Notes: generated from the sequence alone by a model not told the origin. DNA of 64,000 bases from Flavobacteriales bacterium (GCA_016721005.1 JADKJM010000019.1:323747-387746), one strand, 5' to 3'; counted from the stretch's first letter, positions 1 through 20,275 are shown. Translations and numbers: made by a program.

Positions 1-3000
1 GAGATCATCATCGCATCGCTCGAGACCGCGCACGATCCGTTCGTGATGGTGGTGAGCGTCAACTGCACGCTACCCGAGGTGATGTCCGCACCACTCATCG
101 TGTAGGTCGCGTTTGGATCCGTGTTGTTGCTGAAGAAGCCAGAACCCGTGCTGCTCCACGTGATGCCCTGCGATCCGCCGCTGAAGTTGCCCGCGAGTTG
201 CGCGATCGGTGCATTCGCACAGAGCGCTTGGTCGGCGCCCGCGAACGCGTAGCTCGAGTTGCCGAACGTGATCACCATGGCGTCCTGCGTGCTCGGACAG
301 GTACCGGTGTTCGTCGCAGTGAGCGTGAGCACCACGGATCCGTTCGTCACATCCGCTGCGGAGAAGAAATACTGCGCGTTCAGGACATCAGCGTTCGGGC
401 TGAATGTGCCGGTGCCGGTGGATGTCCATGTACCGGAAGGTGATCCGTTCTGGATGCTACCCTGCAGGTTGGCTTGGCTCGAGAGCACGCACACGTTCTG
501 GTCCGGACCGGCGCTGGTAACAATGCCGTTCGTGAGATAGATGGTCATCGCATCGCTCACCGGATTGCAATTCGCGTTGTTCAGCGAGGTGAGCGTGAAG
601 GCGATCGATCCGTTCGCCACATCCGCGGCGCTGGCCGTGTAGGTCGTGTTCAACGAGCCCGCATTCGCGATCGTACCTGTACCGGTCGTGGTCCATTGGC
701 CCATGTTCGTGATGCCGGAGATCGTTCCGCTCAGGTTGAACTGCGTCACGGCATTGCAGAAGGTCTGATCAGCACCGGCGTTCACATACGGCGCCGGGGT
801 CAGCGTCAACAGCATCGCGTCCGTTGCGTTGTTACAGGTGTTCGGTGCGCTAAGGGTCAGCGTGAGGATGCCGATCGTGGTGTCGATCGCACTCGGCACA
901 TAGGTCGGCGTGAGCACGTTGGCGTTCGGGAAGAAGGAGCCCGTACCAGAGGTGGTCCACTGCACTTGCGTGGCGTCACCGCTCAGTGTTCCGTTGAGTT
1001 GCGTTACGCCGTTGTTCGCGCAAGCCGTCACATCAACGCCAGCGTTCACGGTGCCCGCAGGTTGGATCGCGATGAACATCGTGTCGATCGCCGCCTGGCA
1101 AACACCAGTACTCGTAGCGGTGAGTACCAAGTAGGCACCACCGGCGAGCTGGTCGTTCGCGCTCGCCTGGTACACGTTGCTCAGCGCCGTATTCGGGTTG
1201 GCGAAGGCGCCGCTACCCAAGGTGCTCCAAGTCCCGCTGCTCGACGCACCGTTCACCGACCCATTGATCACAATGTTCAGGTTGTTGTAGCAGGTCACTT
1301 GGTCCGCACCAGCACTGGCCACCGATGCAGGCGTGATCGTCAGCACCATCTGGTCCATCGCGTTGTCGCAACTGTTCACGCTCCAGGTGAAGGTGATCGT
1401 GCCTAGAGCAGGATCACCCGATGCGACCTGATACACCGCGTTGGCGTCCGCAGCATTCGGTAAGAAGCTACCAGTGCCCGTGCTGGTCCACTGGCCTTGG
1501 GTCGCATTGCCGGTGATCGTTCCGTTCATCTGGATCGTGTTCGTGGTGGAGCAGATGACTTGATCCACACCCGCGTCCGCGATCGCGTTCGGCAGAATGG
1601 TCACGGTCAGTACATCGCTCACGGCGTTGCACAGACCGTTGCTCGTCGAGGTCAACGTGAGGTCGACCGTACCGCTCAACGAATCGAGGCTGCTGGCGAT
1701 GTAGGTCGCGTTCAACGTGGATGCGGTCGGACTGAAGAGTCCAGTGCCGGTCGTACTCCATAGGCCTGTGGTCGCACCGCCTTGCACGGTTCCATTCAGC
1801 GGCACTTGCAATTGGTTCGAGCAAGTGATCACATCCGCACCCGCATTCACCACTGGTGAAGGCGTAACTGTGATCGTCACTTGGTCAGTCACAGCCAAGC
1901 AGTTGCCGTTTCCAGTGGTCGTGAGCGTGAGTTGCACGCTACCCGATCCCAGTTCGAAGTTGGATGGCGCGTATTGCGCATTCAGCGTTTGTGCGTTCGG
2001 CGTGTAAGTACCGAGGCCTCCACTCCATTGTGCACCCGTAGCCACAGTGATGGAGCCGTTGAGGTTCACCACCGGGTTGTTCATGCACACGTCCAGATCC
2101 GCTCCGGCATTCACCGTTGGAGCGGGTGTGAAGGTCACGACCATCGTATCGCGTACGGCAATGCAGTTGCCATTGCCCGTGCTCGTCAAGTAGAGGGACA
2201 GCGTGCCTGCCGCGAGTTCACCTGCGCTCGGCGTGTACACCGGGCTCAGCACGTTGCTGCTCGGCGCGAATGTTCCGCTGGCGCCTGTCCAAGTTCCACC
2301 ACTTGCGTTGGTGACGTTACCGGTGAGTTGGACCGCACTGTTGTTCGCGCAGATCTGCAGGTCGCTACCGGCGCTCACGATCGGCGCACCGGTGAAGATG
2401 ATCGTCATCTGGTCGGTCACCGCTGTGCAGTAAACCGTTCCTGTAGAAGACAAGGTCAGCGTGAGCGAACCAGCCGCGATCTCCGCTGCGGTCGGTGCGT
2501 ACTGCGTCGCCAGCATGGTGTTGCTCGGGAAGAAGGTTCCCGCACCACCGCTCCACGCGCCACCCGGCGCATTGCCGACGAAGCCGTTGAGTTGCACGTT
2601 CGAATTGTTCGCGCAGATCTGCTGATCCGGTCCGGCGTTCACCACAGGAACCGGATCCACGATCACCACCAGACTGTCGCGCACCACCGTGCAATTGCCG
2701 TTGCCCGTGGTGCTCAGGATCAGGTTGAATTGGCCCGATGCCATCTCCGCAGCCGTTGGCGCGTAGCTCGCATTCAGTGCCGCATTGCTCGGCGTGAACA
2801 GACCGGCGCCACCGCTCCATGCGCCACCGGTTGCCACGGTCACCGCACCATTCAGGTTCACTTGCGTGGTGTTCGCGCAGATGCGGATGTCCAACCCGGC
2901 ATTGGCCGTCGGCGCCGGAGTGAATTGCAATCGCACGGAGTCTGTTGTTGCGAGACAACCGCCGTTGCCGGTCGATGTGAGGAAGAGCCACGCCTGACCG

Positions 3001-6000
3001 CTCGCGATCTCCGCAGTGCTCGGTGTGTAGGATGCGTTCAATGCGCTCGAGTTCGGGCTGAAAGCGCCGGAGACGCCACTCCATGTTGCACCGGTAGCGT
3101 TCGTCACTTGACCTGCGAGTTGTGCGATCGGATTGTTCGCGCAGAGCACTTGGTTCACACCCGCTTCCACGATCGGCGCAGCCGTAATGGTCAATACCAC
3201 TTGCGAGGACACTGCATTGCACAAGCCATTCCCGGTGCTTGTGAGCGTGATCGTCGCCGCACCGGCAGCGATCTCCGCATTGCTTGGCGTATAGGTCGCG
3301 CTGAGGTTCGTGGCACTTGGCGTGAAGACTCCTGCACCGCTCCACATACCGCCGGTCGCGTTCTGCACCGATCCGGCCAATTGAGCAGAAGAATTGTTCG
3401 CGCAAGAGGTCAGCGGTGTGCCCGCGTTCACTATCGGTGATGGGTTGATGGTGATCATCACTTGGTCGGTGACCGGGTTACAAGTTCCATTGCCGACCGT
3501 TGTCAACGTGAGTGTCACTGTACCCGCGCTGATCTCCGAGGCGCTCGGCACATAGGTCGCGTTGAGCGTGCTGTTGTTCGGTGTGTAGCTGCCGTTGCCG
3601 CCGCTCCAGAGAGCACCAGTCGCAACGGTGATCGCACCATTCAACGTAACCGATGGGTTGTTCGCACAAGTGAAGAGATCCACACCGGCGTTGGCTGTCG
3701 GAGCAGGCGTGAAGGTGTAGCTCACGGCATCGCTCATCGCCGCGCAACCGTTGTTGCCCGTGGTGGTCAGGGTCAAGGTCACTTGTCCTGCGGCGAGTTC
3801 GCCAGCAGAAGGTGTGTACATAGCGTTCAGAGCGTTCGCATTCGGCGTGAATGTTCCACCAGCACCAGACCAGGTGCCGCCGTTTGCAACGGTGACAGTT
3901 CCGTTCAATTGGATGCTCGCATTGTTCGCGCAGCGCACGCCATCGCCACCAGCATTCGCGGTCGGCGATGCGGTGAAAGTGATGAGCACTTGATCGGACA
4001 CCGGAACGCAGTTGCCATTGCCGATCGTGGTCAGCGTCAGGGTCAAGGTGCCAGCGGTGATCTCTACAGCGGTGGGTGTGTAGATCGCGTTCAGCGATGC
4101 GATGCTCGGCGCAAAAGTGCCTGCACCACCGCTCCATTGGCCGCCACCGGCGCCGCTCACGGATCCACCGAGTTGGACTTGTGCGTTGTTCGAGCAGACC
4201 GCGATATCAGCGCCCGCATTCGCGCTCGGCGATGCGATGATGGTGATCACCATCTGGTCGCTCACTGCGTTGCACAAGCCATTACCTGTGGAAGTCAGGG
4301 TCAGCGTCGCAGTACCGAGGGCCACTTCAGCAGGGCTCGGATAGTAGCTCGCGTTGAGGGTGTTCGCGTTCGGCGTGTAGGTCCCGCCGCCGCCGCTCCA
4401 TACGCCACCGCTGGCGATGGTCACGGAACCGTTCAGGATCACCGTCGGATCGTTCGCGCACACCGTGCGATCGAGACCCGCGTTCACCACGGGGCTCTGC
4501 GAGAAGAAGATCACCATCTGATCGCTCACCGACAGGCAGCTACCGTTTCCGGTGCTGCTCAGTGTTAGCGTTACGGAACCGTTCGCGAGCTCCGAAGTGC
4601 TCGGCGTGTACACCGCGTTCAGTGTGTTGATGCTCGGCGAGAAGGTGCCCGTGCCGCCACTCCAGATGCCACCGCCCGCGTTGCTCACGGATCCGGCCAT
4701 TTGCACACTAGCGTTGTTGGCGCAGACCGTGCGGTCCACTCCCGCGTTCACCACCGGTGAAGGAGCAATGAAGATGACCATCTGATCGGAAACACCATTG
4801 CACAAGCCATTGCCGGTGCTGCTCAAGGTGAGCGTCACCATGCCCGCAGCAACTTCACCGAGTGTCGGTGTGTAGGTCGCGTTCAGGTTCGTGTTGCTCG
4901 GGTTGAAGGTGCCTGAACCGCCGCTCCAGATCCCGCCGGTCGCGTTGTTCACTACGCCAGCGAGCTGTGCTGTTGGTTGGTTCGCGCACACGGTGCGGTC
5001 AACTCCGGCGTTCGCGATCGGCGCAGGCGTGATGGTGATCACGATCTGATCGCTCACCGGATTGCTGTTCCCGTTGCCCACCGAGGTGAGTGTCAGCGTC
5101 ACCGTACCGGCCGCGCGTTCAGCAGCGCTTGGTGTATAGATCGCGTTCAGCGTGCTGTTGTTCGGATTGTACGTGCCCGTTCCGCCGCTCCAGATGCCGC
5201 CAGTGGCGATGGTGATCGCACCGTTCAACTGCACTGCAGGGTTGTTCGCGCAAACGGTTTGATCCGGTCCTGCATTCGCGGTCGGTGCTGCGCCAAAGAA
5301 GATCGTGATCTGATCGGTCGCTGGCGAGCAACTTGCGTTACCCGTGGTGATCAAGGTCAGCGTCACACTGCCCGCCGCGATCTCCGCAGGGGTCGGCGTG
5401 TACACTGCATTCATCGTGGTGTTATTCGGGCTGTAGGAACCCGCGCCACCGCTCCAGGTCGCACCGGTGGCGATGGAGAAGCTGCCCGCGAGCGTCGTGT
5501 TCGCGTTGTTCGAACTCACGGTCTGATCCGGACCCGCATTCGCCGTCGGCGCTTGCGTGTAGGTGATCACCATCGCATCGCTCACCGCCGCGCACGTGCC
5601 GTTGCCGGTCGTGGTCGCGGTGAGTGTTACCGATCCGTTCACGACTTCGATGGGCGAAGGTGAGTATGTGATGTTCTGTGCCGTGCTTCCTGGGCTATAC
5701 GAACCCGACCCACCGGACCATTGTACACCCGTAGCAACGGTGATCACCGCGTTCAATGTTGCGGTCGCATTGTTGCCGCAGACCGATTGATCAACACCGG
5801 CGTTCACCGTCGGTGCAGGCGTGATCGTGTAGGTCACGTTGTTCGTTACCGCATTGCACAAGCCATTGCCAGCAGAGGTCAGGGTCAGCGTCACCGTCCC
5901 GGCGGTGATCTCCGCAGCCGTCGGCGTGTAGGTCGCGTTCAGTGTGATGCTGTTCGGGCTGAAGGATCCTGCACCACCGCTCCACACGCCACCCGCAGCA

Positions 6001-9000
6001 CCGGTCACGGTACCGTTCAAGGAGATGGTCGCAGCGTTCGCGCAGACACTTCCATTCGCTCCGGCGTTCACGATCGGCGCAGGCGTATAGGTGATGATCT
6101 TGGTGGCAGTAGCGGGTGCGCAATTGCCGTTGCCCGTGGTGGTCAAGGTCAAGGTCACCTGTCCTGCGGCCAGATCACCGGCGCCGGGGTTGTAAGTCGC
6201 ATTGAGCGTATTCGCGTTCGGCGAGTACGTTCCCGTTCCACCGCTCCACACGCCGCCCGTTGCCACGATCACGCTGCCGCCGAGGGCAACTGCTGCGTTG
6301 TTCGCACAACGCGTCACGTTCGGACCAGCATTCGCAGAAGGCGGATCAGTGAAGGTCAAGAGCACTTGGTCGCTCACCGCATTGCACAAACCGTTGCCGG
6401 TGGTGGTGAGCGTGAGCGTCAAGCTTCCTGCTGCGATCTCCGCCGCCGTCGGCGTGTAGATCGCGCTCATGTTCGTCGTGCTTGGATCGAAGGTGCCCGC
6501 ACCGCCGCTCCAGATACCACCGGTAGCGATCGAGAATGCACCGGACAATCCGGTCGAAGCGTTGTTCGCGCAAAGCACACGGTCCGCACCGGCGTTCGCC
6601 GTCGGAGCAGGTGTGATGCTGTACGTCACCTGGGCGCTCACCGCATTGCAATTGCCGTTGCCCGTGGTGGTCAAGGTCAGTGTCACGGTGCCGGCGGCAC
6701 GTTCAGCCGCGCTTGGCGTGTACACCGCGTTCAGCGTGGCATTGTTCGGATTGTACGTGCCCGTTCCACCGCTCCAAGCAGCACCCGTGGCACCGGTGAT
6801 CGCACCAGCAAGCGCGATGTTCGCGTTGTTCGCGCACACCGTTCCGTTCGGTCCTGCATTCACGGTCGGCGCAGGCGTGAAGGTGATCAACTTGGTGTCC
6901 GATACTGCTGTGCAGTTCCCGTTGCCCGTGGTGGTCAGCGTCAACGTCAGTGTACCCAACGCGAGTTCCGCAGGCGTCGGCGTGTAGGTCGCGTTGAGCG
7001 TGGTGTTGTTCGGCGTGAATGATCCCGCACCACCGCTCCAGATCCCTCCAGTAGCAACTCCGACCGCACCATTCAGCGGAACGTTCGCGTTGTTGCGGCA
7101 CACGGATACATCCACACCGGCATCCACTGTCGGGCTCGGCGTGAAGCTGATCAACATCTGATCGCTCACTGCCACACAGTTGTTGTTGCCAGTTGTGGTC
7201 AACGTCAACGTCACGGAACCGTTCGAGAGCTCCGTCACCGTCGGCGTGTAGGTAGCGTTCATGTTCGTGGTGCCTGGGCTGAAAGTGCCCGCACCACCGC
7301 TCCACACACCACCGGTCGCGATCGTGAAGCCACCGTTCAAGGTGGTCGCCGAATTGTTCGCGCAACGCACTTGATCCACACCCGCGTTCACTGTCGGTGC
7401 AGGGGTGATCGAATAGGTCACGTTCGAGCTCACCGCATTGCAGTTACCGTTGCCGGCCGAGGTCAGCGTGAGCGTTACCGTTCCGGCGTTGCGTTCGGCA
7501 ACGGTCGGTTGGTAGGTCGCGTTGAGCGTGGTGTTGTTCGGCGTGAAGACACCGGCGCCACCGCTCCAGATCGCACCGCTCGCGCCACTCACCGATCCGT
7601 TCAAGGTGATCAATGAAGCGTTCGAGCAAACCGTCCCGTTCGGACCTGCGTTCACCACGGGAGCAGGAGTGAAGGTGATCGTGCGCGTGCTCGTGACGGC
7701 GTTGCAATTACCGTTGCCGGTGGTTGTCAAGGTCAGCGTCAGTGTTCCCGCTGCGAGTTCCGCAGGGGTCGGCGTATACACCGCGTTCAGCGTGGTGTTG
7801 TTCGGTGTGAAGGACCCCAGGCCACCGCTCCAGATACCGCCCGTGGCACCGGAAACCGAACCGGTCATCGTCACCTGCGGATTGTTCACGCAGATCGAGA
7901 TCGGAGCACCCGCGCTCGCAACAGGCGCTGGCGTGAAGCTGATCGTGACCTGATCGATAACAGCGATGCAGTTGTTGTTGCCGGTCGTTGTCAATGTGAG
8001 TGTGACAGAACCGGTCGCGATCTCAGCAGCCGTTGGCGTGTAGGTCGCATTCAGGTTCGTGGTGCTCGGTGCAAAAGTGCCTGCATCTCCGCTCCAAATT
8101 CCGCCCGTCGCAACGGTCACGCTGCCGGCAAGTGTTGCTACTGCATTGTTCGCGCAACGCGATTGGTTCGGACCCGCATTGGCTGTCGGAGCAGGCGTGA
8201 TCGAATAGGTAACGTTGCTCGATACCGCATTGCAATTACCATTGCCCACCGTGGTGAGCGTGAGCGTCACCGTACCCGCCGTACGTTCAGCAATGCTCGG
8301 CGTGTACACTGCGTTCAGCGTGGCGTTGTTCGGATTGTATGTGCCGGTTCCGCCGCTCCACACCGCGCCTGTTGCGCCGCTCTGTGAACCGGCCAAGGTG
8401 ATCGCGGAATTGTTCGCGCAGACGGTTCCATTCGGACCGGCGCTTACTGAAGGTGCAGGTGTGAACGAGATCACACGACTGCTCTGCACGGGGTTGCACA
8501 TGCCGTTGCCGGTGCTCGTCAGCGTCAAGGTCAAGGTGCCACCAGCGATCTCCGCTGCGGTCGGCGTGTAGGTCGCGTTGAGCGTTGTGTTGTTCGGATT
8601 GTAGGTACCCGTGCCACCGCTCCACACGCCACCGATCGCTCCGGAAACGCTGCCGTTCAAACTCACCTGTGCATTGTTCGCGCAGAGCGAAACGGGCGCA
8701 CCGGCGTTCACCACAGGTGCTGCGGTGAAGTTGATCACCATCTGATCGATCACGGCGACGCAGTTGCCGTTGCCGGTCGTCGTCAGCGTAAGCGTCACTG
8801 AACCATTCGCGATCTCAGCAGCGCTTGCTGTGTAGATCGCACTCATGTTCGTGGTGCTCGGATCGAAAGTTCCATTGCCGCCACTCCACACGCCGCCTGT
8901 CGCGACAGTGAAGGCGCCGCTCAGCGAGACCGCCGGATTGTTCGAGCAACGGGTCGCATCGGGACCCGCGTTCACCGTTGGTGTGGGCGTGATCGCATAG

Positions 9001-12000
9001 GTCACGTTCGCGCTCACCGCGTTGCAGTTCCCGTTGCCAACCGTCGTGAGCGTGAGGGTCACCGTGCCCGCCGCGCGTTCGGCAGCGGTCGGCGTGTAGA
9101 CCGCGTTCATGGTAGCGTTGTTCGGGTTGTAGCTGCCCGCGCCTCCGCTCCAGATCGCACCCGTTGCACCGGTGAAGGCACCGGCCAGCGTGATGTTCGA
9201 ATTGTTCGAGCACACGCTGCCGTTCGACCCAGCGCTCACCGTCGGTGCTGGCGTGAACGTGATCACGCGCGCACTGGAAACCGGATTGCAATTGCCGTTG
9301 CCCGTGCTCGTCAGCGTCAGTGTTACTGTGCCTGCGGCGAGATCGGAAGCGCTTGGCGTGTAGGTCGCGTTGAGCGTGGTGTTGTTCGGTGCGAAAGTGC
9401 CGGAACCGCCGGTCCATGCACCGCCCGTTGCGCCGAAGACACTGCCGTTCAAACTCACCTGAGCGTTGTTCGCGCAGAGCGAGATCGGCGCACCAGCGTT
9501 CACTGTGGGTGCATCGGTGATGCTGATCACCATCTGATCGGCTACTGCAGTGCAGGTGCCGTTGCCAGTGGTCGTCAACGTCAAGGTCACGATACCTGCG
9601 GTGATCTCCGCCGCGCTCGGTGTGTAGATCGCACCCATGTTCGTGGTGCTCGGATCGAAGGTGCCTGCACCACCGCTCCAGATACCTCCGGTAGCGATCG
9701 TGAAGGAACCGTTCAATGCAACGGTCGGATTGTTCGCGCACACCGTGCGATCGAGTCCGGCGTTGGCGGTCGGCGCAGGAGTGATCGTGAACGTCACCTG
9801 ATCATTCACCGCATTGCAATTGCCATTGCCTACCGTGGTGAGCGTGAGCGTCACCGTACCCGCTGCGCGTTCAGCAGCGCTCGGTGTGTACACCGCATTG
9901 GTGGTCGTGTTGTTCGGATTGTACGTACCCGTGCCGCCGCTCCAGATCACGCCGGTCGAAACCGTGAAGGCACCCGCCAAAGTGATCGCGGAGTTGTTCG
10001 CGCACACCGTTGCGTTCGGACCCGCATCCACCGTTGGTGCAGGTGTGAAGGTGATCACACGGCTGTCGGAAACAGCGGTGCAATTGCCGTTACCCGTGGT
10101 GGTCAACGTCAAAGTCAACGTGCCCGCAGCGAGTTCCGCGGGGGTCGGCGTGTAGGTCGCGTTAAGGTTCGTGTTGTTCGGCGTGAAGGAACCCGCGCCA
10201 CCGCTCCAGATCCCACCGGTCGCGATCGTCACCGATCCACCCATGGGCACGCTGGCGTTGTTGCGGCACAGCGTCAAGTCAGGACCTGCATTCGCCGTCG
10301 GACTTGCTGTGAAGTTCAACTGCACCTGATCCGTCACGGCGATGCACGTACCGTTACCGGTCGTGGTCAGCGTCAGCGTCACGTTGCCGTTCGCGATCTC
10401 CACGGCCGTCGGGGTGTAGGTCGCGCCCATGTTCGTGGTGCTCGGACTGTAGGAACCATTACCACCGCTCCAGACACCACCGGTCGCAACCGTGGAGGAG
10501 CCACTCAACGTGGCTACCGGGTTGTTGCTGCAAAGCGTTTGGTCCGGACCCGCATTCGTGGTCGGAGCAGGCGTGATCGTATAGGTCACACTCGACGCGA
10601 CCGCATTGCAATTGCCATTGCCCGCAGAAGTCAGGGTCAGCGTCACTGTACCGGCAGTGCGTTCAGCAGCGGTCGGTGTGTAGGTCGCATTCAGCGTGGT
10701 GTTGTTCGGGGTGTAAGTGCCACCGCCGCCGCTCCAGATCGCACCGGTCGCACCCGTAACAGATCCGTTCAAGCTGATCGTCGCGTTGTTCGTGCAAACA
10801 CTTCCATTCGGACCAGCGCTCACGATCGGCGAAGGCGTGAACGTGATCACCTTGTTGCTCATCACCGGATTGCAATTGCCATTGCCCGTGCTGGTCAAAG
10901 TCAACGTCAGTGTGCCACCCGCGATCTCCGCAGCGGTGGGCGCGTAGGTCGCAGTGAGTGTAGTGTTGTTCGGGTTGAAGGTGCCTGTGCCGCCGCTCCA
11001 AATGCCGCCGGTCGCACCGGAAACGGATCCACTCAAACTCACTTGCGCATTGTTCGCGCAGAGCGAGACCGCAACACCCGCATTCACCACGGGTGCATCG
11101 GTGATGAAGATCACCATCTGATCATTCACCGCCGTGCAGCTGCCGTTGCCGGTCGTCGTCAATGTCAACGTCGCGATACCCGCAGTGATCTCCGCCGCGC
11201 TCGGCGTGTAGACCGCCCCCATGTTCGTGGTGCTCGGATCGAAGGTGCCTGCGCCACCGCTCCAGATACCACCGGTAGCGATCGTGAAGGAACCGTTCAG
11301 TGCGACCGCTGCGTTGTTCGCGCACACCGTGCGATCGAGTCCGGCGTTGGCTGTTGGCGCAGGTGTGATCGTGAACGTCACCTGATCATTCACCGCATTG
11401 CAATTGCCATTGCCCACCGTGGTGAGCGCAAGCGTAACCGTACCCGCTGCGCGTTCTGCTGCGCTCGGCGTGTACACCGCGTTCATCGTGGTGTTGTTCG
11501 GGGTATACGTGCCCGCACCGCCGGTCCACTGGGCACCGGTTGAAACAGTGAACGCTCCGGCCAAAGTGATGGCGGAGTTGTTCGCGCACACCGATGCGTT
11601 CGGACCGGCATTCACAGTAGGAGATGGCGTGAACGTGATCAAGCGGCTATCGGCAACCGAATTGCAATTGCCGTTACCCGTGGTGGTCAATGTCAGCGTG
11701 AGCGTACCCGCAGCGAGTTCCGCCGGGGTCGGCGTGTAGGTCGCGTTGAGCGTGGTGTTGTTCGGCGTGAATGAACCGGCACCACCGCTCCAAATGCCGC
11801 CAGTTGCCACGGTCACCGATCCACCGAGTGCAATGCTTGCGTTGTTGCGACAGAGCGACAGGTCAGCACCGGCGTTGGCGGTCGGACTTGGCGCGAAGTT
11901 CAGTTGGACTTGATCGGTAACGGCGAGGCACGTGCCGTTGCCGGTCGTCGTCAAGATCAAGGTCACCGTGCCGCTCGCGATCTCCGCAGCGGTCGGCGTG

Positions 12001-15000
12001 TAGGTCGCGTTCAGGTTGGTGGTGCTCGGCGCGAACGTGCCCGCACCGCCGCTCCAGATGCCGCCCGTGGCGATCGTCACGCTTCCACCAAGTGAAGCCA
12101 CCGGGTTGTTGGTACACAGCGATTGATCCGCTCCTGCATTGGCTGTCGGAGCAGGCGTGATCGTCCAGGTCACGTTCGAGCTCACCGCATTGCAATTGCC
12201 GTTGCCTGCGGAGGTCAATGTCAGCGTTACCGTTCCAGCAGTGCGCTCGGCAGCAGTCGGCGTGTAGGTCGCATTGAGCGTGGTGTTGTTCGGGTTGTAA
12301 GTACCAGCACCACCGCTCCAAATGCCGCCGGTCGCACCGATCACGGATCCATTCAAGTTGATCGTTGCGTTGTTCGTACAAACGCTTCCGTTCGATCCAG
12401 CGCTCACGATCGGCGAAGGCGTGAACGTGATCACCTTGTTGCTCGCGACAGGATTACAGGCGCCATTGCCCGTGCTCGTCAATGTCAGCGTCAACGTGCC
12501 CGCCGCGATCTCCGCTGCGGTTGGCGTGTAGGTCGCGGTAAGTGTGGTGTTGTTCGGGTTGAAAGTGCCCGTGCCACCGCTCCAGATGCCACCGGTCGCA
12601 CCCGTAACAGATCCACTCAAACTCACTTGCGCATTGTTCGCGCAGAGCGAAACAGCAATGCCTGCATTCACAACAGGTGCCGCCGTGAAGGCGATCACCA
12701 TCTGATCAGCAACAGCGATGCAACCACCATTGCCAGTGGTCGTCATGGTCAGCGTCACCGTACCGCTGGAGATCTCACCAGCGGTCGGCGTGTACTGCGC
12801 ACCCATGTTCGTGGTGCTCGGATCGAAGGACCCTGCGCCACCGCTCCAGATGCCGCCTGTCGCTACCGTGAACGAACCGTTCAAAGTGACCACCGCGTTG
12901 TTCGCGCATACCGTGCGATCCACACCGGCGTTCGCTGTCGGTGCAGGCGAAATGGTGAAGGTCACCTGATCGCTCATCGCATTGCAATTGCCGTTGCCCA
13001 CCGTGGTGAGCGTCAGCGTTACCGTACCGGCAGTGCGCTCAGCAGCACTTGGCGTGTACACCGCATTCAGTGTAGTGTTGTTCGGAGCGTAAGTGCCCGT
13101 GCCGCCGCTCCAGGCCGCGCCTGTCGCCACGGTGATCGCGCCCGCAAGCGTGATGGCCGAGTTGTTCGCGCATACCGTCGCGTTCGGACCTGCATCAACC
13201 GTCGGAGCCGGAGTGATCGTGATCACTTTGCTGCTCGATACTGCCGTGCAATTACCGTTGCCGGTGGAAGTCAGTGTCAATGTCACCGTACCCGCCGCGA
13301 TCTCCGCAGCGCTCGGTGTGTAGGTCGCGTTCAACGTAGTCGCGTTCGGGTTGAATGAACCCGTGCCGCCGCTCCATGCGCCGCCCGTTGCACCGGTCAC
13401 ACTACCATTCAAAGCGACCTGAACGTTGTTCGCGCAAACCGGAACAGCAACTCCTGCGCTTACAACAGGCGCAGGCGTGAAGGTCAAGAGAACTTGATCG
13501 GTCACCGCTATGCAGCCACCGTTGCCGGTAGTGGTCAACGTCAGCGTCACTGATCCGCTGGAGATCTCTCCCGGGGTGGGCGTGTACTGCGCGCCCACGT
13601 TCGTGGTGCTCGGATCAAAAGACCCCGCGCCACCGCTCCACACACCACCTGTCGCAACCGTGAACGATCCGTTCAAGGTGGCCACTGCGTTGTTCGCGCA
13701 AAGTGTTTGGTCGAGCCCCGCGTTCGTTGTCGGTGCGGGTGTGATCGCGTAGGTCACGCTCGCGCTGACCGCATTGCAATTGCCATTGCCCACCGTGGTG
13801 AGCGTCAGCGTCACCGTACCTGCCGTGCGTTCCGCAGCGCTCGGCGTGTACACCGCGTTCATCGTGGTGGTGTTCGGGTTGTACGATCCCGTGCCGCCAC
13901 TCCAAACCGCACCTGTCGCGAGTGTGAAAGAACCCGCCAAGGTGATATCCGCGTTGTTCGCGCAAACACTTCCGTTCGCTCCGGCATTCACCGTAGGGGC
14001 TGCCGTGAAGCTGATGACCTTGTTGCTCGTGACGGGCAAGCAGTTGCCATTGCCTGTGCTGCTCAACGTGAGCGTTAACGTGCCCGCCGCGATCTCTGCA
14101 GCAGTTGGTGTGTAGGTCGCATTCAGCGTGGTGTTGTTCGGTGCGTATGAACCAGCACCGCCGCTCCAAGCCCCACCGGTTGCGCCGGTGACCGAACCGC
14201 TCAGCGTGACAACCGCATTATTCGCGCAGAGCGAAACCGCAGCGCCTGCATTCACGACTGGTGCTGCCGTGAAGTTGATGAGCACCTGATCGTTGACCGC
14301 AACGCAATTCCCGTTGCCTGTCGTGGTCATCGTCAAGGTCACCGAGCCGCTGGCGACCTCCGCAGCAGTGGGTGTGTATTGCGCCGACATGTTCGTCGTG
14401 CTGGGGTCGAAGGAGCCCGCACCACCGCTCCACACACCACCTGTGGCCACCGTGAACGATCCGTTCAACTGCACCACCGCGTTGTTCGCACAGCGCGTTT
14501 GGTCAGGACCTGCGTTCGCAGTGGGTGAAGGCGTGAACGTCACCAGCATGCTGTCCGCGACGGCCGCGCACACACCGTTACCGGTGGAGGTCAGCTTGAT
14601 CCACATTTGTCCGGCGGTGAGGTTTGCGGCAGTCGGCGTGTAGGTCGCGTTCAGGTTGCTGTTGCTTGGCAGAAAGGTGCCACCACCGCCAGTCCACACT
14701 CCACCAACTGCGTTCAACATGGTGCCTGCCAACTGCACCACGGAGTTGTTCCGACAAACGTTCTGGTCCGGTCCAGCGTTGGGGATCGGTTTCGGACTGA
14801 AGGTGACCACCATCGCGTCGTTGGCTGGTGTGCACGGACCTGTGGAGGTCAGGGTAAGGGTCACGCTGCCGATAGCGAGATCACCGATGCTCGGGTGGTA
14901 GGTCGCGTTCAGCGCCGTTGCACTTGGCATGAAGGTTCCGCTGCCGGTTGTTGTCCAGATACCCGTAGTGCTTCCTCCGGAAACCGTACCAGCCAAAAGC

Positions 15001-15060
15001 ACGGTGTCACCTGCACAGCGCGTTTGATCAGCGCCTGCATTCACGTTGATCTGCCCGGCG
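1..15060. repeat. Coding tandem repeat array, unit ~264 bp (88 aa), ~57 units, divergent (roughly 40-90% identity between units)
   Basis: Recurring wrong-frame peptide signatures (e.g. QLPLPVVVSVSVTVPAA…SAAVGV) at ~264-bp spacing through the whole interval, and direct minus-strand translation. Confidence 0.75.
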
Positions 15061-16439
15061 AATTCCGAGAAGAAGCCGTAGCGGCATCCGCTCGTTGCGC
15101 CGCCGTTGATGATGGCGAGCGAGAACACATCCGTGGTGTTCGAAACGATGAATGCTTGGTTCACCGGCACCTGCGTGGTGTTGTACTGGATCCGCGCGGC
15201 CATCCAAACCCCACCTGTGCCAGGTACCGTTTGGAACGCCGCACCCGGTATCGTTGCCGTACCGGGTGTTACCACGAAATTGTTCTGTGATCCGTTCCTG
15301 ACCAGGATATTCAGGAAGAAGGATTCGCTTGTACTTCGCGTGAAGCTGAGTTGCGTGCTTCCCGCGCAATTCAGCGGAGGCAGGATCGCCATGCCCTGCT
15401 CGCAACCGAAACCGGTGACATGTATGGCGTACAACGGCTTGGAGCCGGTGACCAACGTGGCGTTGTTCGCCGCGCCAGCCAGATAGTCCATGTCGTGGCG
15501 GTAGTACTGGCCAGCGAAGAGCGTGGCCACAGGAACCGGGTTACCATCGATATAGACCTGCGTGTTGTTCTGCACGGCCATCACGAAGAGAGATTCGTCG
15601 CCGGTGTTGTTCAGCGCACCCTTCACCGCCACGTACTCGGTGCCCAGAATGTTCACCGGAACGATCTGATCGAGCATCAGGTCATAGCAACCGCCCGAGG
15701 GGTTGTGGTTCGAATCGTCCTTGATCGAAACCGCGACCGGCTTGTCTGAAAGCACGACCGCTCCCGAAGGGTGCGTCAAAGGGTCGGTGTGTGTCGCCGG
15801 CACCGTGTTCGCCGTGGAGTAGGTCTGGCCCTGGTTCAGGATGATGGTCCACGGAACGAGCGCGCCATGACCATCCACCGCCACGGGCGAATAGATCATC
15901 ACCGTGGTGTTGTTCTGGGTCGCAACGATATCGAACGAAGCGAACGCGAGGTCGGCATTGTTCGGTGAGAAATTGTGATTCGCGAAAGGCGTGTGCTTGT
16001 GTAGCGGGATGTAGAATTCGGTGCCCAAGCCGTTGGCACCCTTCAGCGCCATGATGTCCGGGTTGTTCGTGTTGCTGCTCTCGTAGTAGCAAGTGATGTT
16101 GGCCGTGGATTGGATCCGAAGACCCGTGTTGCGAATGCTGTTCGTCGGGCGGGTCTCCAACTGGACCTTCAGCGCCGTCATGTTGTAGCGGACGGCCGAG
16201 TTTGCCGCCACATTGATCACGATGGGTGAGCCGCCGTTGAATCCGGCGTTCGCTGGCTGCGAGACCGTTACGGTCGCAGCCGCGTTGCCAGAAGTGACGT
16301 TGAGGTAGATCGGCTCATCCCCCGGCGTATTGTGGTAATACGTCACGTCGGGCGGAGCCATCCAGAACTCGGTTCCGGTCTGTGCGTGCAGGATCCCGGC
16401 CAGGACCACCGCAAGCACCAAGAGGAGTGCCTTTTTCAT
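1..16439 (-). CDS. Giant secreted cell-surface adhesin-like protein, partial (>5,470 codons in window). Signal peptide, ~450-aa N-terminal non-repeat domain, then ~57 tandem ~88-aa Ig-like beta-sandwich repeats (recurring NAG-x-DQ-x-x-C ... L-x-G-S ... GG-x-WSGG-x-G ... Y-T-P-[ST]-A-A-E ... G-N-G-x-C motifs). C-terminus, probably a T9SS/gliding-type sorting domain, lies beyond the window start.
   Basis: ATG at 16439..16437 (minus) followed by MKKALLLVLAVVLAGILHAQ (signal peptide). Hand translation of the minus strand gives protein-like repeats at the N-terminal end and at the window edge (…TLTTITNGSCAVSSDAMMI from 59..3) in the same phase (position mod 3 = 2). No minus-strand ORF in that phase is listed anywhere in 1..16439, which is expected only if the frame is stop-free for ~5,479 codons and runs off the edge. 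All listed ORFs in the interval are R/G/H-rich other-frame products. Confidence 0.8.
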   Translation of the reverse strand, partial: MKKALLLVLAVVLAGILHAQTGTEFWMAPPDVTYYHNTPGDEPIYLNVTSGNAAATVTVSQPANAGFNGGSPIVINVAANSAVRYNMTALKVQLETRPTNSIRNTGLRIQSTANITCYYESSNTNNPDIMALKGANGLGTEFYIPLHKHTPFANHNFSPNNADLAFASFDIVATQNNTTVMIYSPVAVDGHGALVPWTIILNQGQTYSTANTVPATHTDPLTHPSGAVVLSDKPVAVSIKDDSNHNPSGGCYDLMLDQIVPVNILGTEYVAVKGALNNTGDESLFVMAVQNNTQVYIDGNPVPVATLFAGQYYRHDMDYLAGAANNATLVTGSKPLYAIHVTGFGCEQGMAILPPLNCAGSTQLSFTRSTSESFFLNILVRNGSQNNFVVTPGTATIPGAAFQTVPGTGGVWMAARIQYNTTQVPVNQAFIVSNTTDVFSLAIINGGATSGCRYGFFSEFAGQINVNAGADQTRCAGDTVLLAGTVSGGSTTGIWTTTGSGTFMPSATALNATYHPSIGDLAIGSVTLTLTSTGPCTPANDAMVVTFSPKPIPNAGPDQNVCRNNSVVQLAGTMLNAVGGVWTGGGGTFLPSNSNLNATYTPTAANLTAGQMWIKLTSTGNGVCAAVADSMLVTFTPSPTANAGPDQTRCANNAVVQLNGSFTVATGGVWSGGAGSFDPSTTNMSAQYTPTAAEVASGSVTLTMTTTGNGNCVAVNDQVLINFTAAPVVNAGAAVSLCANNAVVTLSGSVTGATGGAWSGGAGSYAPNNTTLNATYTPTAAEIAAGTLTLTLSSTGNGNCLPVTSNKVISFTAAPTVNAGANGSVCANNADITLAGSFTLATGAVWSGGTGSYNPNTTTMNAVYTPSAAERTAGTVTLTLTTVGNGNCNAVSASVTYAITPAPTTNAGLDQTLCANNAVATLNGSFTVATGGVWSGGAGSFDPSTTNVGAQYTPTPGEISSGSVTLTLTTTGNGGCIAVTDQVLLTFTPAPVVSAGVAVPVCANNVQVALNGSVTGATGGAWSGGTGSFNPNATTLNATYTPSAAEIAAGTVTLTLTSTGNGNCTAVSSSKVITITPAPTVDAGPNATVCANNSAITLAGAITVATGAAWSGGTGTYAPNNTTLNAVYTPSAAERTAGTVTLTLTTVGNGNCNAMSDQVTFTISPAPTANAGVDRTVCANNAVVTLNGSFTVATGGIWSGGAGSFDPSTTNMGAQYTPTAGEISSGTVTLTMTTTGNGGCIAVADQMVIAFTAAPVVNAGIAVSLCANNAQVSLSGSVTGATGGIWSGGTGTFNPNNTTLTATYTPTAAEIAAGTLTLTLTSTGNGACNPVASNKVITFTPSPIVSAGSNGSVCTNNATINLNGSVIGATGGIWSGGAGTYNPNNTTLNATYTPTAAERTAGTVTLTLTSAGNGNCNAVSSNVTWTITPAPTANAGADQSLCTNNPVASLGGSVTIATGGIWSGGAGTFAPSTTNLNATYTPTAAEIASGTVTLILTTTGNGTCLAVTDQVQLNFAPSPTANAGADLSLCRNNASIALGGSVTVATGGIWSGGAGSFTPNNTTLNATYTPTPAELAAGTLTLTLTTTGNGNCNSVADSRLITFTPSPTVNAGPNASVCANNSAITLAGAFTVSTGAQWTGGAGTYTPNNTTMNAVYTPSAAERAAGTVTLALTTVGNGNCNAVNDQVTFTITPAPTANAGLDRTVCANNAAVALNGSFTIATGGIWSGGAGTFDPSTTNMGAVYTPSAAEITAGIATLTLTTTGNGSCTAVNDQMVIFITDAPVVNAGVAVSLCANNAQVSLSGSVSGATGGIWSGGTGTFNPNNTTLTATYAPTAAEIAGGTLTLTLTSTGNGNCNPVMSNKVITFTPSPIVSAGPNGSVCTNNATISLNGSVTGATGAIWSGGGGTYTPNNTTLNATYTPTAAERTAGTVTLTLTSAGNGNCNAVASSVTYTITPAPTTNAGPDQTLCSNNPVATLSGSSTVATGGVWSGGNGSYSPSTTNMGATYTPTAVEIANGNVTLTLTTTGNGTCIAVTDQVQLNFTASPTANAGPDLTLCRNNASVPMGGSVTIATGGIWSGGAGSFTPNNTNLNATYTPTPAELAAGTLTLTLTTTGNGNCTAVSDSRVITFTPAPTVDAGPNATVCANNSAITLAGAFTVSTGVIWSGGTGTYNPNNTTTNAVYTPSAAERAAGTVTLTLTTVGNGNCNAVNDQVTFTITPAPTANAGLDRTVCANNPTVALNGSFTIATGGIWSGGAGTFDPSTTNMGAIYTPSAAEITAGIVTLTLTTTGNGTCTAVADQMVISITDAPTVNAGAPISLCANNAQVSLNGSVFGATGGAWTGGSGTFAPNNTTLNATYTPSASDLAAGTVTLTLTSTGNGNCNPVSSARVITFTPAPTVSAGSNGSVCSNNSNITLAGAFTGATGAIWSGGAGSYNPNNATMNAVYTPTAAERAAGTVTLTLTTVGNGNCNAVSANVTYAITPTPTVNAGPDATRCSNNPAVSLSGAFTVATGGVWSGGNGTFDPSTTNMSAIYTASAAEIANGSVTLTLTTTGNGNCVAVIDQMVINFTAAPVVNAGAPVSLCANNAQVSLNGSVSGAIGGVWSGGTGTYNPNNTTLNATYTPTAAEIAGGTLTLTLTSTGNGMCNPVQSSRVISFTPAPSVSAGPNGTVCANNSAITLAGSQSGATGAVWSGGTGTYNPNNATLNAVYTPSIAERTAGTVTLTLTTVGNGNCNAVSSNVTYSITPAPTANAGPNQSRCANNAVATLAGSVTVATGGIWSGDAGTFAPSTTNLNATYTPTAAEIATGSVTLTLTTTGNNNCIAVIDQVTISFTPAPVASAGAPISICVNNPQVTMTGSVSGATGGIWSGGLGSFTPNNTTLNAVYTPTPAELAAGTLTLTLTTTGNGNCNAVTSTRTITFTPAPVVNAGPNGTVCSNASLITLNGSVSGASGAIWSGGAGVFTPNNTTLNATYQPTVAERNAGTVTLTLTSAGNGNCNAVSSNVTYSITPAPTVNAGVDQVRCANNSATTLNGGFTIATGGVWSGGAGTFSPGTTNMNATYTPTVTELSNGSVTLTLTTTGNNNCVAVSDQMLISFTPSPTVDAGVDVSVCRNNANVPLNGAVGVATGGIWSGGAGSFTPNNTTLNATYTPTPAELALGTLTLTLTTTGNGNCTAVSDTKLITFTPAPTVNAGPNGTVCANNANIALAGAITGATGAAWSGGTGTYNPNNATLNAVYTPSAAERAAGTVTLTLTTTGNGNCNAVSAQVTYSITPAPTANAGADRVLCANNASTGLSGAFSIATGGIWSGGAGTFDPSTTNMSAIYTPTAAEIAAGSLTLTLTTTGNGLCNAVSDQVLLTFTDPPSANAGPNVTRCANNAAVALGGSVIVATGGVWSGGTGTYSPNANTLNATYNPGAGDLAAGQVTLTLTTTGNGNCAPATATKIITYTPAPIVNAGANGSVCANAATISLNGTVTGAAGGVWSGGAGSFSPNSITLNATYTPTAAEITAGTVTLTLTSAGNGLCNAVTNNVTYTITPAPTVNAGVDQSVCGNNATATLNAVITVATGVQWSGGSGSYSPGSTAQNITYSPSPIEVVNGSVTLTATTTGNGTCAAVSDAMVITYTQAPTANAGPDQTVSSNNANTTLAGSFSIATGATWSGGAGSYSPNNTTMNAVYTPTPAEIAAGSVTLTLITTGNASCSPATDQITIFFGAAPTANAGPDQTVCANNPAVQLNGAITIATGGIWSGGTGTYNPNNSTLNAIYTPSAAERAAGTVTLTLTSVGNGNSNPVSDQIVITITPAPIANAGVDRTVCANQPTAQLAGVVNNATGGIWSGGSGTFNPSNTNLNATYTPTLGEVAAGMVTLTLSSTGNGLCNGVSDQMVIFIAPSPVVNAGVDRTVCANNASVQMAGSVSNAGGGIWSGGTGTFSPSINTLNAVYTPSTSELANGSVTLTLSSTGNGSCLSVSDQMVIFFSQSPVVNAGLDRTVCANDPTVILNGSVTIASGGVWSGGGGTYTPNANTLNASYYPSPAEVALGTATLTLTSTGNGLCNAVSDQMVITIIASPSANAGADIAVCSNNAQVQLGGSVSGAGGGQWSGGAGTFAPSIASLNAIYTPTAVEITAGTLTLTLTTIGNGNCVPVSDQVLITFTASPTANAGGDGVRCANNASIQLNGTVTVANGGTWSGAGGTFTPNANALNAMYTPSAGELAAGQVTLTLTTTGNNGCAAMSDAVSYTFTPAPTANAGVDLFTCANNPSVTLNGAITVATGALWSGGNGSYTPNNSTLNATYVPSASEISAGTVTLTLTTVGNGTCNPVTDQVMITINPSPIVNAGTPLTSCANNSSAQLAGSVQNATGGMWSGAGVFTPSATNLSATYTPSNAEIAAGAATITLTSTGNGLCNAVSSQVVLTITAAPIVEAGVNQVLCANNPIAQLAGQVTNATGATWSGVSGAFSPNSSALNASYTPSTAEIASGQAWLFLTSTGNGGCLATTDSVRLQFTPAPTANAGLDIRICANTTQVNLNGAVTVATGGAWSGGAGLFTPSNAALNASYAPTAAEMASGQFNLILSTTGNGNCTVVRDSLVVIVDPVPVVNAGPDQQICANNSNVQLNGFVGNAPGGAWSGGAGTFFPSNTMLATQYAPTAAEIAAGSLTLTLSSTGTVYCTAVTDQMTIIFTGAPIVSAGSDLQICANNSAVQLTGNVTNASGGTWTGASGTFAPSSNVLSPVYTPSAGELAAGTLSLYLTSTGNGNCIAVRDTMVVTFTPAPTVNAGADLDVCMNNPVVNLNGSITVATGAQWSGGLGTYTPNAQTLNAQYAPSNFELGSGSVQLTLTTTGNGNCLAVTDQVTITVTPSPVVNAGADVITCSNQLQVPLNGTVQGGATTGLWSTTGTGLFSPTASTLNATYIASSLDSLSGTVDLTLTSTSNGLCNAVSDVLTVTILPNAIADAGVDQVICSTTNTIQMNGTITGNATQGQWTSTGTGSFLPNAADANAVYQVASGDPALGTITFTWSVNSCDNAMDQMVLTITPASVASAGADQVTCYNNLNIVINGSVNGASSSGTWSTLGSGAFANPNTALSNVYQASANDQLAGGAYLVLTATSTGVCQAAIDTMFIAIQPAGTVNAGVDVTACANNGVTQLNGTLSGDATQVQWTTSGTGSFFPNANVLTPTYVPSAIDTTIGILTLTLSAPNTCNNATDAMLLTLTPAPYVNAGADQTFCNAVTQFNLSGTISGITNMGQWTTTGTGTIANAGSLNTTYTASAADVANGSIAFTLTSLNNANCNPVSDAMTIYLTNGIVTSAGPDQNVCVLSSQANLQGSIQNGSPSGTWTSTGTGTFSPNADVLNAQYFFSAADVTNGSVVLTLTATNTGTCPSTQDAMVITFGNSSYAFAGADQALCANAPIAQLAGNFSGGSQGITWSSTGSGFFSNNTDPNATYTMSGADITSGSVQLTLTTITNGSCAVSSDAMMI
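5800..14250. repeat. Higher-order tandem repeat: a 792-bp unit (three consecutive ~88-aa domains, A-B-C) repeated ~10-11 times with high inter-copy identity (about 85-95%)
   Basis: Near-identical translated segments recur at multiples of ~792 bp. Examples: the MQLPLPTVVSVSVTVPAARSAALGVYTA… ORFs at 9814, 11398 and 13774 (spacings 1584 and 2376 bp); DPFKLIVALFVQTLPF at ~10768 and ~12352 (1584 bp apart) with a DPFKVINEAFEQTVPF relative at ~7594; related copies near 6650 and 8230. Boundaries are approximate. Confidence 0.65.
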
Positions 16440-16642
16440 ACCAGTAGGTTCAAGTCGGTCCATGAGTAGTGGACCGGGTCCGTTCTACGCAGAACCGATC
16501 TCGGGGTTCGTTCGTCGAGAAAAGTCGGCCATTGGTCGGGCGTTCCGCCTCGGGGGCGAGTCGTCGCGCCAAGTGCGATACTGGCACACGGTCCGATCGC
16601 CACCCCCGTACTTTGGCGCAGCCCTTGCGACCGACGCGCTCC

Positions 16643-19600: not shown

Positions 19601-20275
19601 CATGCGTGGAAGGAGATGGCGCGCCAAGTCGCACACGAGATCAAGAATCCGCTCACGCCGATGAAGCTCGGCATCCAGCATTTCCAACAGACCTGGGATC
19701 CCGATGCGCCGGATGCGCGTGCGCGATTGGATCGCTTCAACACCAGCATGGTGGAACAGATCGATGCGCTAAGCCGTGTGGCTGGTGATTTCTCGCGCTT
19801 CGCACAATTGAGCGAAGCGAATGCAACCGTGGTGGACATGAACGAAGTCGTGCGCAGCGCGGTGGACCTGTTCGCTGGTGAGCGCGATGCCAACATCCGA
19901 TTCACTCCTGCGATGGACCCGGTCATGGTCATGGCGGACAAGGAGCACTTGCTGCGCGTGTTCAATAACCTGTTGAAGAACGCTCTTCAGTCCATTCCCG
20001 ATGGCCGGAGCGGAAAGGTCGAGGTGGTCATTCGTTCACATGAAAACGCGGCGATCGCGGAGGTGCGCGACAATGGTTCGGGCATTCCTGCGGATGTGCG
20101 AGAGAGCATCTTCGAGCCGAACTTCACCACCAAGAGCAGCGGCATGGGGCTGGGGCTAGCCATGGTGAAACGCATGGTCGAACAAGCGCACGGAACCGTT
20201 CGCTTCGATACGACCGAGGATAGTGGGACAACCTTCTCCGTGGAGCTACCTTTGGTCAAAGAGCCTGCATCATGA
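16643..20275 (+). CDS. Sensor histidine kinase, multi-pass membrane protein (1 N-terminal TM, an 8-TM block, a periplasmic-like domain, further TMs, HAMP-like linker, HisKA and HATPase_c). No receiver domain and no adjacent response regulator.
   Basis: HisKA H-box AHEIKNPLTPM; HATPase_c motifs NLLKNALQS, DNGSGIP, GMGLGLAMVKR. Many hydrophobic segments. The arginine-rich N-terminal extension of the 16469 ORF is rejected; start taken at the ATG at 16643 (MFRPLPLLLLGALCAAAALFV). Stop overlaps the next start (ATGA). Confidence 0.85.
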   Translation: MFRPLPLLLLGALCAAAALFVTEPDAEHELAKAAADIGPRVLEMDRGLQEFTENQTRSIASSGSGSWMADHAESMELVQARTGMELCAFIGDSLVAWSGTSSTGWSRSTAARHEPRTDGSVFLHAELVIGLLRVRAFRPVWVSPPVQNRYLIEGFHPAVHAPPGARAVSGEGVGPVISNDQGKELFRLAWNEGALEMGTWLVWRLLLLAMSAFFILAALWRSCFRLVGDGRVLIGVVLFCTTVLLLRWLTLAWGHTAPFDRWPLFDPAIYATSKFFPSLGDLLINALLFAFVASFLWACRHRIVSNGDALSVFLFGGVILALSVWITRLCIGLINDSSIDLDLYHVQSIDAYGVIALCIIAILLGSWCLVAASLVPNALPEKADRSQWVAIAGVLLISIVLHHWYGIVDTIMFLWPVPVIVLLAIGHRQTFTFLMGVVLIALLAAISTHILTKYSHGREQRERVVLAERLAAREDPVVEQLFREVAPEIRRDPAVYAMLTGTTVCGPGELEAVVRQPYFSGYWERYDIRLFGSGPQGDTRCATDLDPPRSTNDPKDAFPVGVSDMPDLFIDEWSEGDVFYHGRVAIMPNDSLPPAQLLVELQPRSSAPGFGFPELLLAGDDALALRAERYEQARYVNGLLMYSSARSSQPMHWSVALDENGERWYSVNGYDYLAKAVGKNTIMVLGIPTHGLVDKATTFSYLFTFFGLLALLVLGVRLILTRSIPSLGIGTKVRVALVLFAITGLVLFGIGSQQLLTRQFAQRTASESLEKAHAVQQELVRQLGDEKLDRDTHASYLQHLLGRLGNSFFTDITIYTPDGRLLASSRPQMFSVGLLGDRMDPLAFARLAIEGASSFVHEENIGGATFRTAYVPLLDRHGALLAHIALPRFADQHLQEEERSELLVAVVNLFVLLFAISIMLAVFISKWTTRPLDILKRSLAGVALQGANAPIRYRGKDEVGELVAVYNRKVDELRESAEKLARSEREHAWKEMARQVAHEIKNPLTPMKLGIQHFQQTWDPDAPDARARLDRFNTSMVEQIDALSRVAGDFSRFAQLSEANATVVDMNEVVRSAVDLFAGERDANIRFTPAMDPVMVMADKEHLLRVFNNLLKNALQSIPDGRSGKVEVVIRSHENAAIAEVRDNGSGIPADVRESIFEPNFTTKSSGMGLGLAMVKRMVEQAHGTVRFDTTEDSGTTFSVELPLVKEPAS

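Follow-up and report, generated by a model that had tools for sequence, protein, structure and literature searches.

The stalks of staphylococcal SasG/Aap, streptococcal Rib/alpha C and Marinomonas MpIBP are in-frame arrays of immunoglobulin-like (Ig-like) domains, in which the number of repeats determines how far a distal binding module extends; the repeats are typically >90-100% identical at the DNA level and vary between strains. SprB of Flavobacterium johnsoniae is a gliding-motility adhesin of 6,497 amino acids (aa) and a type-B CTD (C-terminal domain) cargo of the T9SS (type IX secretion system) with SprF as its partner; type-B CTD cargo is anchored at the surface by pairing with PorP-like proteins (PMC9143113). 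GhpA, the grappling-hook protein of Aureispira sp. CCB-QB1, comprises 5,898 aa and is represented by several solved structures (PDB entries 9fly, 9flv, 9flx, 9fls, 9g8b and 9flw). Its plan consists of a Sec signal, a distal N-terminal module, about 50 or more Ig-like stem repeats and a T9SS CTD, with a PorP-like gene downstream (bioRxiv 10.1101/2024.01.29.577165). The seven-domain units of nebulin are an example of multi-domain super-repeat expansion, and the joint duplication of multiple domains in the middle of an array, with stable ends, is a general pattern of domain repeats (Bjorklund, Ekman and Elofsson 2006, PMC1553488). Here, we describe a giant adhesin gene at the start of a 64,000-nucleotide stretch of DNA from an uncultured Flavobacteriales bacterium (GCA_016721005.1, JADKJM010000019.1:323747-387746), the whole of which is referred to as the window. 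The 5' part of this gene (3..16439, minus strand) encodes a long run of Ig-like domains, and we found that 33 of them form a higher-order array of three-domain units. The array is very likely an ancient in-frame three-domain super-repeat in the mid-stalk of a T9SS-secreted, anchored surface filament protein of ~6,200 aa.

The nucleotide (nt) autocorrelation of positions 1..16500 revealed peaks at lags of 792 (57.3%), 1584 (56.7%) and 264 (55.1%) over a background of ~33%. Segmentation with a hidden Markov model (HMM) built from in-register copies yielded 57 consecutive units of ~88 aa (D1-D57), and the spacing from D3 to D44 was exactly 264 bp (88 codons), free of indels. The unit-by-unit nt identity matrix revealed three interleaved types (A, B and C) with a period of three that spanned D3 to D35, and type-specific HMMs read the same units as the string ABC repeated 11 times. 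These 33 units of 264 bp, or 11 A-B-C triplets of 792 bp, occupied 5805..14516 on the minus strand. Units of the same type were on average 71.5% identical in nt (range 66-88%) versus 62.8% for units of different types; this difference was ~18 standard deviations above 2000 label permutations, none of which (0/2000) reached the observed value. The corresponding aa identities were 72% and 59%. An independent repeat search recovered a strict 264-bp register in which every third copy was 70-78% identical and the remainder 60-66%, and the two marks of a higher-order tandem repeat, a 264-bp in-register base period and lag-3 similarity over 11 periods, were thus both present. Tandem Repeats Finder (TRF) reported only two rows, both with a 264-bp period; the 792-bp period did not appear there because the longest TRF period was 500.

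The flanks of the array were different in character. Both D1-D2 and D45-D57 were far more divergent than the array units. D1-D2 (14517..15041, minus strand) lay outside the higher-order array according to the unit matrix and the type HMMs and were collinear in orthologues, while D45-D57 (3..3428, minus strand) contained small indels (87-90 aa) and were 77% identical to the orthologue fragment P0122. The intervening D36-D44 (3429..5804, minus strand) kept the 264-bp register but showed no period of three (identity 0.619 vs 0.610) and were collinear across genomes; these are older single units.

A first-pass annotation of this DNA had described a 792-bp periodicity and a three-domain unit repeated ~10-11 times within the adhesin gene at 5800-14250. 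The autocorrelation peak, the period of three in the unit matrix and the 11 triplets bear this out; the upper boundary moves to 14516 because D3 belongs to the array. Its view that the array is younger than the flanking repeats also holds, as the array units are more alike than the flank units, but the "high identity" that it ascribed to the copies is an overstatement given the same-type values above. The open reading frames (ORFs) that it quoted at 9814, 11398 and 13774 do exist on the plus strand but are antisense to the minus-strand gene, and the same is true of the blocks that it placed at ~10768 and ~12352, where DPFKLIVALFVQTLPF was found exactly at 10762 and 12346. Most of these examples lie at a lag of 1584 because of a six-unit duplication of D10-D15 and D16-D21, the ORF pair at 11398 and 13774 (lag 2376) being unlike the others.

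The two copies of this 1,584-bp duplication, delimited by identity, synonymous divergence (Ks) and exact matches, were located on the minus strand at 11085..12668 (copy 1, D10-D15) and 9501..11084 (copy 2, D16-D21). Compared unit for unit, they were 87, 82, 73, 81, 86 and 88% identical in nt, with Ks values of 0.37-1.10 (0.37-0.5 in the closest pairs), and the longest exact matches, of 50, 48 and 41 bp, were all found at lag 1584. In three orthologous loci (L003, L005 and L021), six units were absent at the duplication site. This duplication is the youngest event in the window array.

To date the array as a whole, we compared divergence within it and between genomes. The median Ks between units of the same type (Nei-Gojobori) was 1.07 for A, 1.17 for B and 0.95 for C, with a Ka/Ks of ~0.2, and exact direct repeats anywhere in the gene were no longer than 50 bp. 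The orthologous Ks between the window and locus L001 was 0.59 in the units and 0.34 in the N-terminal domain, and that between the window and L003, L005, L007 and L018 was 0.7-0.9. L001 was the only close relative, with aa identities of 98% in the N-terminus and 97% in the neighbouring histidine kinase; in every other relative, this syntenic kinase was 42-61% identical in aa (51-52% in L007, L018 and L019). Same-type Ks equalled or exceeded the orthologous Ks to relatives in which the syntenic neighbour is just 51-59% identical. Paralogues within the array have diverged at least as much as distantly related genomes have from each other, and the array is therefore not of recent date; it is old, well differentiated and stable in the source genome. 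Near-identical copies, as seen in a recently amplified or contingency-type locus, were not present, with exact matches of 50 bp at most and a same-type Ks of ~1. This is in contrast to SasG/Aap, Rib/alpha C and MpIBP, in that same-type units were ~72% identical here and the array was conserved in distant relatives.

The array was then followed in other genomes. Since the protein-database matches were fragments of ~1,100 aa or less, orthologues were compared as genome loci instead; one scan of species-representative genomes gave 70 loci, and each orthologue unit was mapped to the best window unit. Up to 10 kb of array was compared per orthologue, and the counts for L018 and L001 are lower bounds. 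L001, L007, L018 and L019 were collinear with the window unit for unit; the order of D1-D35 in L001 was identical to that of the window, and L018 contained six units more. In the distant arrays, D1-2/3 and D33 onward were collinear, and the middle was shorter by 3, 6, 9, 15, 18, 21 or 24 units. As read from the type-specific HMM strings, 11 triplets were present in the window, L007 and L019, at least 11 in L001 (where the flank ends after the 11th) and at least 12 in L018. Ten were found in L036 and L022; nine in L003, L005, L025, L029 and L015; eight in L004, L016, L023, L031, L039 and L043; and at least eight in L021, where the gene sequence ends after the 8th. Shorter arrays contained six (L048), five (L032), four (L014 and L041), three (L052) or about one triplet (L012). 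The number of triplets thus ranged between ~1 and at least 12 and changed by whole triplets throughout, in multiples of three units, and the A>B>C order was broken at none of the 558 typed junctions in 24 genomes. The changes fall in the middle of the array because the flank units D1-2 and D33-D57 stay collinear, in agreement with the general pattern of domain repeats (PMC1553488). Copy-number change in triplet steps is real and is seen between species. Distant orthologues of 1,600-3,000 aa had no ABC block.

In each genome taken by itself, the units that resembled each other most nearly always lay 3, 6, 9 or 12 units from one another, and the longest stretches repeated exactly usually measured 30-90 bp. 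The exception was L048 (JACJZI010000002.1), in which a perfect exact repeat of 1,601 bp was found at lag 2376. Over gene offsets 0-11,400, the arrays of L048 and L052 (JACJZJ010000002.1) were 100% identical from an offset of ~2000, apart from an extra perfect block of 2,376 bp (nine units) in L048, and their N-terminal domains were only ~81% identical in nt. Both are metagenome-assembled genomes (MAGs) of one study. The block in L048 reflects either a recent gain of triplets, with the array also exchanged among lineages living together, or a hybrid assembly that is chimeric or expanded.

The copy number in the window was supported by independent assemblies. All window units differed from one another: pairwise identity reached 88% at most, and exact matches did not exceed 50 bp. 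The frame was intact over 16.4 kb. The same 11 triplets were recovered in the same order in independent assemblies, including the nanopore contigs L001 and L019. Contig ends within 10 kb of the N-terminal domain were found downstream in 25 and upstream in 22 of 51 loci, and those within 2.5 kb numbered 12 downstream and 6 upstream; no clear excess of contig breaks inside the array was evident across the 51 loci. Copy-number variation in the family is not merely a short-read artefact because several of the assemblies are long-read or hybrid. An apparent truncation of the L001 product (JADJKO010000008.1) after 3,614 aa (offset ~10,840) was rejected as a frameshift, as the repeat resumes in frame +1; this is typical of nanopore consensus error. 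Likewise, on several long-read contigs represented in the protein database, the adhesin gene is split into a number of short ORFs, such as P0128 and P0173, which share a 656-kb contig.

To understand what each 264-bp unit encodes, we compared the 88-aa unit with known domains and structures. In the alignment of 56 units, A2, G3, W29, G34, Y47 and G57 were invariant, and C9 and C71 were near-invariant. AlphaFold2 (AF2), run on this alignment, predicted a small β-sandwich with a pLDDT (predicted local distance difference test) of 90.9 and a pTM (predicted template modelling score) of 0.80. Among solved structures, the top matches were Ig-like repeats of GhpA (9fly, 9flv and others), with E-values of 8e-4 to 1e-2, template modelling (TM) scores of 0.65-0.70 and sequence identities of 21-28%, followed by cadherin EC domains. 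On the predicted fold, each unit is a single 88-aa Ig-like domain. Neither Pfam nor NCBIfam contained a model that matched the repeat unit at threshold, and a sequence profile of the 56 units detected nothing among PDB chains at E ≤ 0.01. Matches of the repeat to RNase_PH_C, DUF7507 and choice_anch_D were discarded as sub-threshold noise. The SprB repeat (PF13573) was not detected at E ≤ 0.1 or 0.01 in segments covering D14-D22 (with partial ends), D9-D11 and D50-D57; it was present only in some distant N-terminal homologues. Related repeats were observed in many Bacteroidota proteins named 'beta strand repeat-containing', 'CHU large protein' or 'gliding motility-associated C-terminal domain-containing'.

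A six-frame scan of the window revealed a minus-strand frame without stops from 16484 down to base 3, with the adhesin ATG at 16439 and at least 5,479 codons before the gene leaves the start of the window. The product begins with MKKALLLVLAVVLAGILHAQ (16380..16439, minus strand), which was judged by eye to be a Sec-type signal peptide. An IgGFc_binding domain (PF17517; Pfam E = 5.4e-34, residues 136-421) was located at 15177..16034 on the minus strand; the match falls in the N-terminal 480 aa, and the domain was 72-98% identical in orthologues. It presumably serves as the binding module or distal tip. The N-terminal homologues, which are MAG-derived, carry the label 'IgGFc-binding protein [Flavobacteriales bacterium]'. 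At the other end, the start of P0122 was 77% identical to the final 349 aa of the adhesin in the window; because P0122 runs ~700 aa past the window edge, into PKD_4 and CHU_C domains (CHU_C E = 1.7e-15), the full adhesin is estimated at ~6,200 aa. Two complete, shorter orthologues (L044 and L050) end in PKD and CHU_C domains and are directly followed by a PorP_SprF gene (E = 6.7e-41 in L044 and 8.3e-36 in L050). Because of the signal peptide, the IgGFc_binding N-terminus and the PKD and CHU_C domains followed by PorP/SprF in the orthologues, we infer that the product is a giant surface adhesin of the type-B T9SS class, as would be expected from the C-termini and partner gene of these orthologues.

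Upon comparison with SprB, the adhesin was found to share its Bacteroidota origin, giant size, signal peptide and long run of Ig-like domains, as well as, in the orthologues, the CHU_C type-B CTD and the downstream PorP/SprF gene. In contrast to SprB, the window repeats had no PF13573 match and the N-terminus was an IgGFc_binding domain; neither a link to gliding nor orthology with SprB was supported. The adhesin also follows the overall plan of GhpA, and the GhpA repeats are the best solved match to the 88-aa unit. The cargo and adjacent PorP-like partner seen in the orthologues are likewise arranged as in SprB/SprF and GhpA/GhpB (bioRxiv 10.1101/2024.01.29.577165). The similarity to GhpA was, however, at the fold level only, the N-terminal modules differed, and there was no indication of the heptamers, hooks or predation of GhpA for the window adhesin. 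Additionally, the passages of the GhpA preprint considered here do not describe a three-domain higher-order repeat, which the window adhesin does contain. In this respect, the adhesin resembles super-repeats of the nebulin type, in which several domains are duplicated together and each family has a unit size of its own (PMC1553488). The cases in that study are mostly eukaryotic, with few from bacteria; here, the process was traced over ~25 bacterial genomes with ~1 to at least 12 copies. In the literature on higher-order repeats in adhesins, nothing relevant was found.

In the best-supported reading, same-type units of an ancestral A-B-C triplet would have undergone slipped misalignment or unequal homologous recombination, which multiplied the triplet. 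Because same-type units recombined, later events may have added or removed 3, 6 or 9 units at a time, chiefly in mid-array, and the copies would then have diverged synonymously while purifying selection preserved the protein. Across species, the array would act as a length module that shifts the IgGFc_binding tip nearer to or farther from the cell. The geometry, age and fold of the array, its collinearity in orthologues, its range of copy number and the T9SS features of the orthologues are shown by the data, and from these comparisons we infer how the units recombined, that the array serves as a stalk and that the tip binds; the reading of stalk length as reach is drawn from the architecture and the analogy with GhpA and SprB. 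The process still appears to operate in the family, given the perfect 2,376-bp duplicate in L048, and L048 and L052 hint at copy-number differences between close relatives in another lineage.

Several readings of the array were weighed against this one. The first-pass annotation regarded it as recently amplified and recombinogenic, able to vary in length between cells or strains and prone to collapse or expansion in assemblies, so that its true copy number would be uncertain. Such a contingency-type locus would agree with the triplet units being more alike than the flanking units, with the variation in copy number between genomes, with the 1,601-bp perfect repeat of L048 that is absent from the near-identical array of L052 and with contig ends within 2.5 kb being slightly commoner downstream than upstream. 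For the window, it is largely refuted by Ks and collinearity, and we regard it as quite improbable: same-type Ks is ~1 and reaches 0.37-1.1 even in the youngest duplication, exact repeats do not exceed 50 bp, and the array is collinear one-to-one with L007, L018 and L019 despite 51-52% identity of the neighbouring gene. The 50-bp limit and the mean same-type identity of ~72% also speak against recombination between cells. The nanopore contig of the sole close relative, L001, has the identical order of 33 units, and the totals of contig ends are alike on the two sides (25 vs 22 of 51). What remains of the earlier proposal is copy-number variation between species, as whole-triplet differences were indeed found on comparing array lengths among related genomes; recent instability was not seen in this window, and the caution about collapse or expansion, which does not apply here given the agreement of the L001 and L019 nanopore contigs, does apply elsewhere in the family, namely to the extra block of L048. 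An array or 1,584-bp duplication created or mis-sized by the assembler is hardly credible. Mis-assembly is a well-known hazard of repeat arrays, and L048 and L052, from one study, differ by an exact nine-unit block; nevertheless, the 33 window units are distinct, none being more than 88% identical or sharing exact matches beyond 50 bp, the frame is unbroken over 16.4 kb, and the same order was recovered in independent assemblies of other genomes.

A less remote, although still unlikely, alternative is that the triplet is a selected structural or functional super-repeat, with three Ig-like domains per filament period, such that only whole triplets are tolerated and stalk length is quantised. 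The unbroken A>B>C order at all 558 junctions of 24 genomes would fit this idea, as insertions or deletions of one or two units would stay in frame and 20-29% of the present exact seeds of at least 20 bp lie out of triplet register. Type identity was also recognisable in distant genomes with arrays that are not collinear with the window, Ka/Ks was ~0.2, and GhpA stems have disulfides linking Ig-like domains that lie close together, as well as a defined register of the multimer (bioRxiv 10.1101/2024.01.29.577165). However, unequal recombination biased by homology predicts the same pattern, since fresh same-type copies are the most alike when they recombine. The independent events are few (~9-15), with P ~0.01-0.08 under a seed-only null, and an ABC block is dispensable for function in the distant orthologues of 1,600-3,000 aa. 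It is doubtful that the triplet is a filament period under selection, with three Ig-like domains to each turn or to each inter-strand register, as in the bundled stem of a GhpA-like protein. If it were, stalk length could be altered only by quanta of about 12 nm, the A>B>C order, unbroken in 24 genomes despite abundant out-of-register seeds, would be its signature, and the array would be a bacterial counterpart of the titin/nebulin super-repeats built from an 88-aa Ig-like family.

Some points weigh against an ancient super-repeat in a T9SS-anchored filament protein, the reading that we prefer. T9SS targeting is taken from orthologues because the adhesin's own C-terminus and its downstream partner gene lie beyond the window. 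The discordant identities of the N-terminus and the array imply that the gene may be exchanged between lineages, which would weaken dating by the neighbouring gene. The comparison with close relatives consists of L001 alone, in which no difference in triplet order was found through D35, and it speaks neither for nor against strain-level polymorphism. Finally, the window copy number was deduced from assemblies.

With regard to the history of the gene, the N-terminal domain of the adhesin (15042..16439, minus strand) was 72-90% identical in aa versus 42-61% for the neighbouring kinase in all relatives except L001. The N-terminus and the units were also discordant with each other: identities were 81% vs ~90% in L018 and L019 and 90% vs ~78% in L004. 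Such discordance points to a mosaic past of the adhesin gene or to some of its parts having been exchanged laterally.

The upstream neighbour of the adhesin gene is a divergently transcribed histidine kinase of 1,268 aa (16469..20275, plus strand), and Pfam gave no match to its N-terminal ~1,000 residues (16469..19500, plus strand). Because the synteny of kinase and adhesin is kept in nearly all relatives, the kinase might regulate the adhesin. We also observed stalk-free relatives of 637-640 aa (P0011, P0014, P0017 and others), in which IgGFc_binding is fused straight to a type-A Por_Secre_tail CTD (PF18962); because of these, the tip module is seen to occur both on long stalks and free of them, and in combination with CTDs of both types. 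Close homologues were found in bins named Synechococcus sp., Dokdonella sp. and Tahibacter sp. (L059, CALRTD020000246.1; P0055; P0059), and several homologue loci bear the name 'uncultured Chryseobacterium sp.'. The odd taxon names on these bins probably reflect contamination or mislabelling and not transfer.

Taken as a whole, the array is an ordinary if neat example of length change in giant adhesins. It offers a clean, datable case in which whole three-domain blocks were gained or lost in mid-stalk while the ends stayed fixed, and visible periodicity alone does not amount to recent amplification, instability or unreliable assembly. Current models in Pfam and NCBIfam miss the 88-aa unit, an Ig-like domain that is widespread in Bacteroidota, and database entries for this adhesin family are mostly fragments. 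The Flavobacteriales that carry the family are common in activated-sludge metagenomes, and, speculatively, their surface filaments could matter for floc formation.

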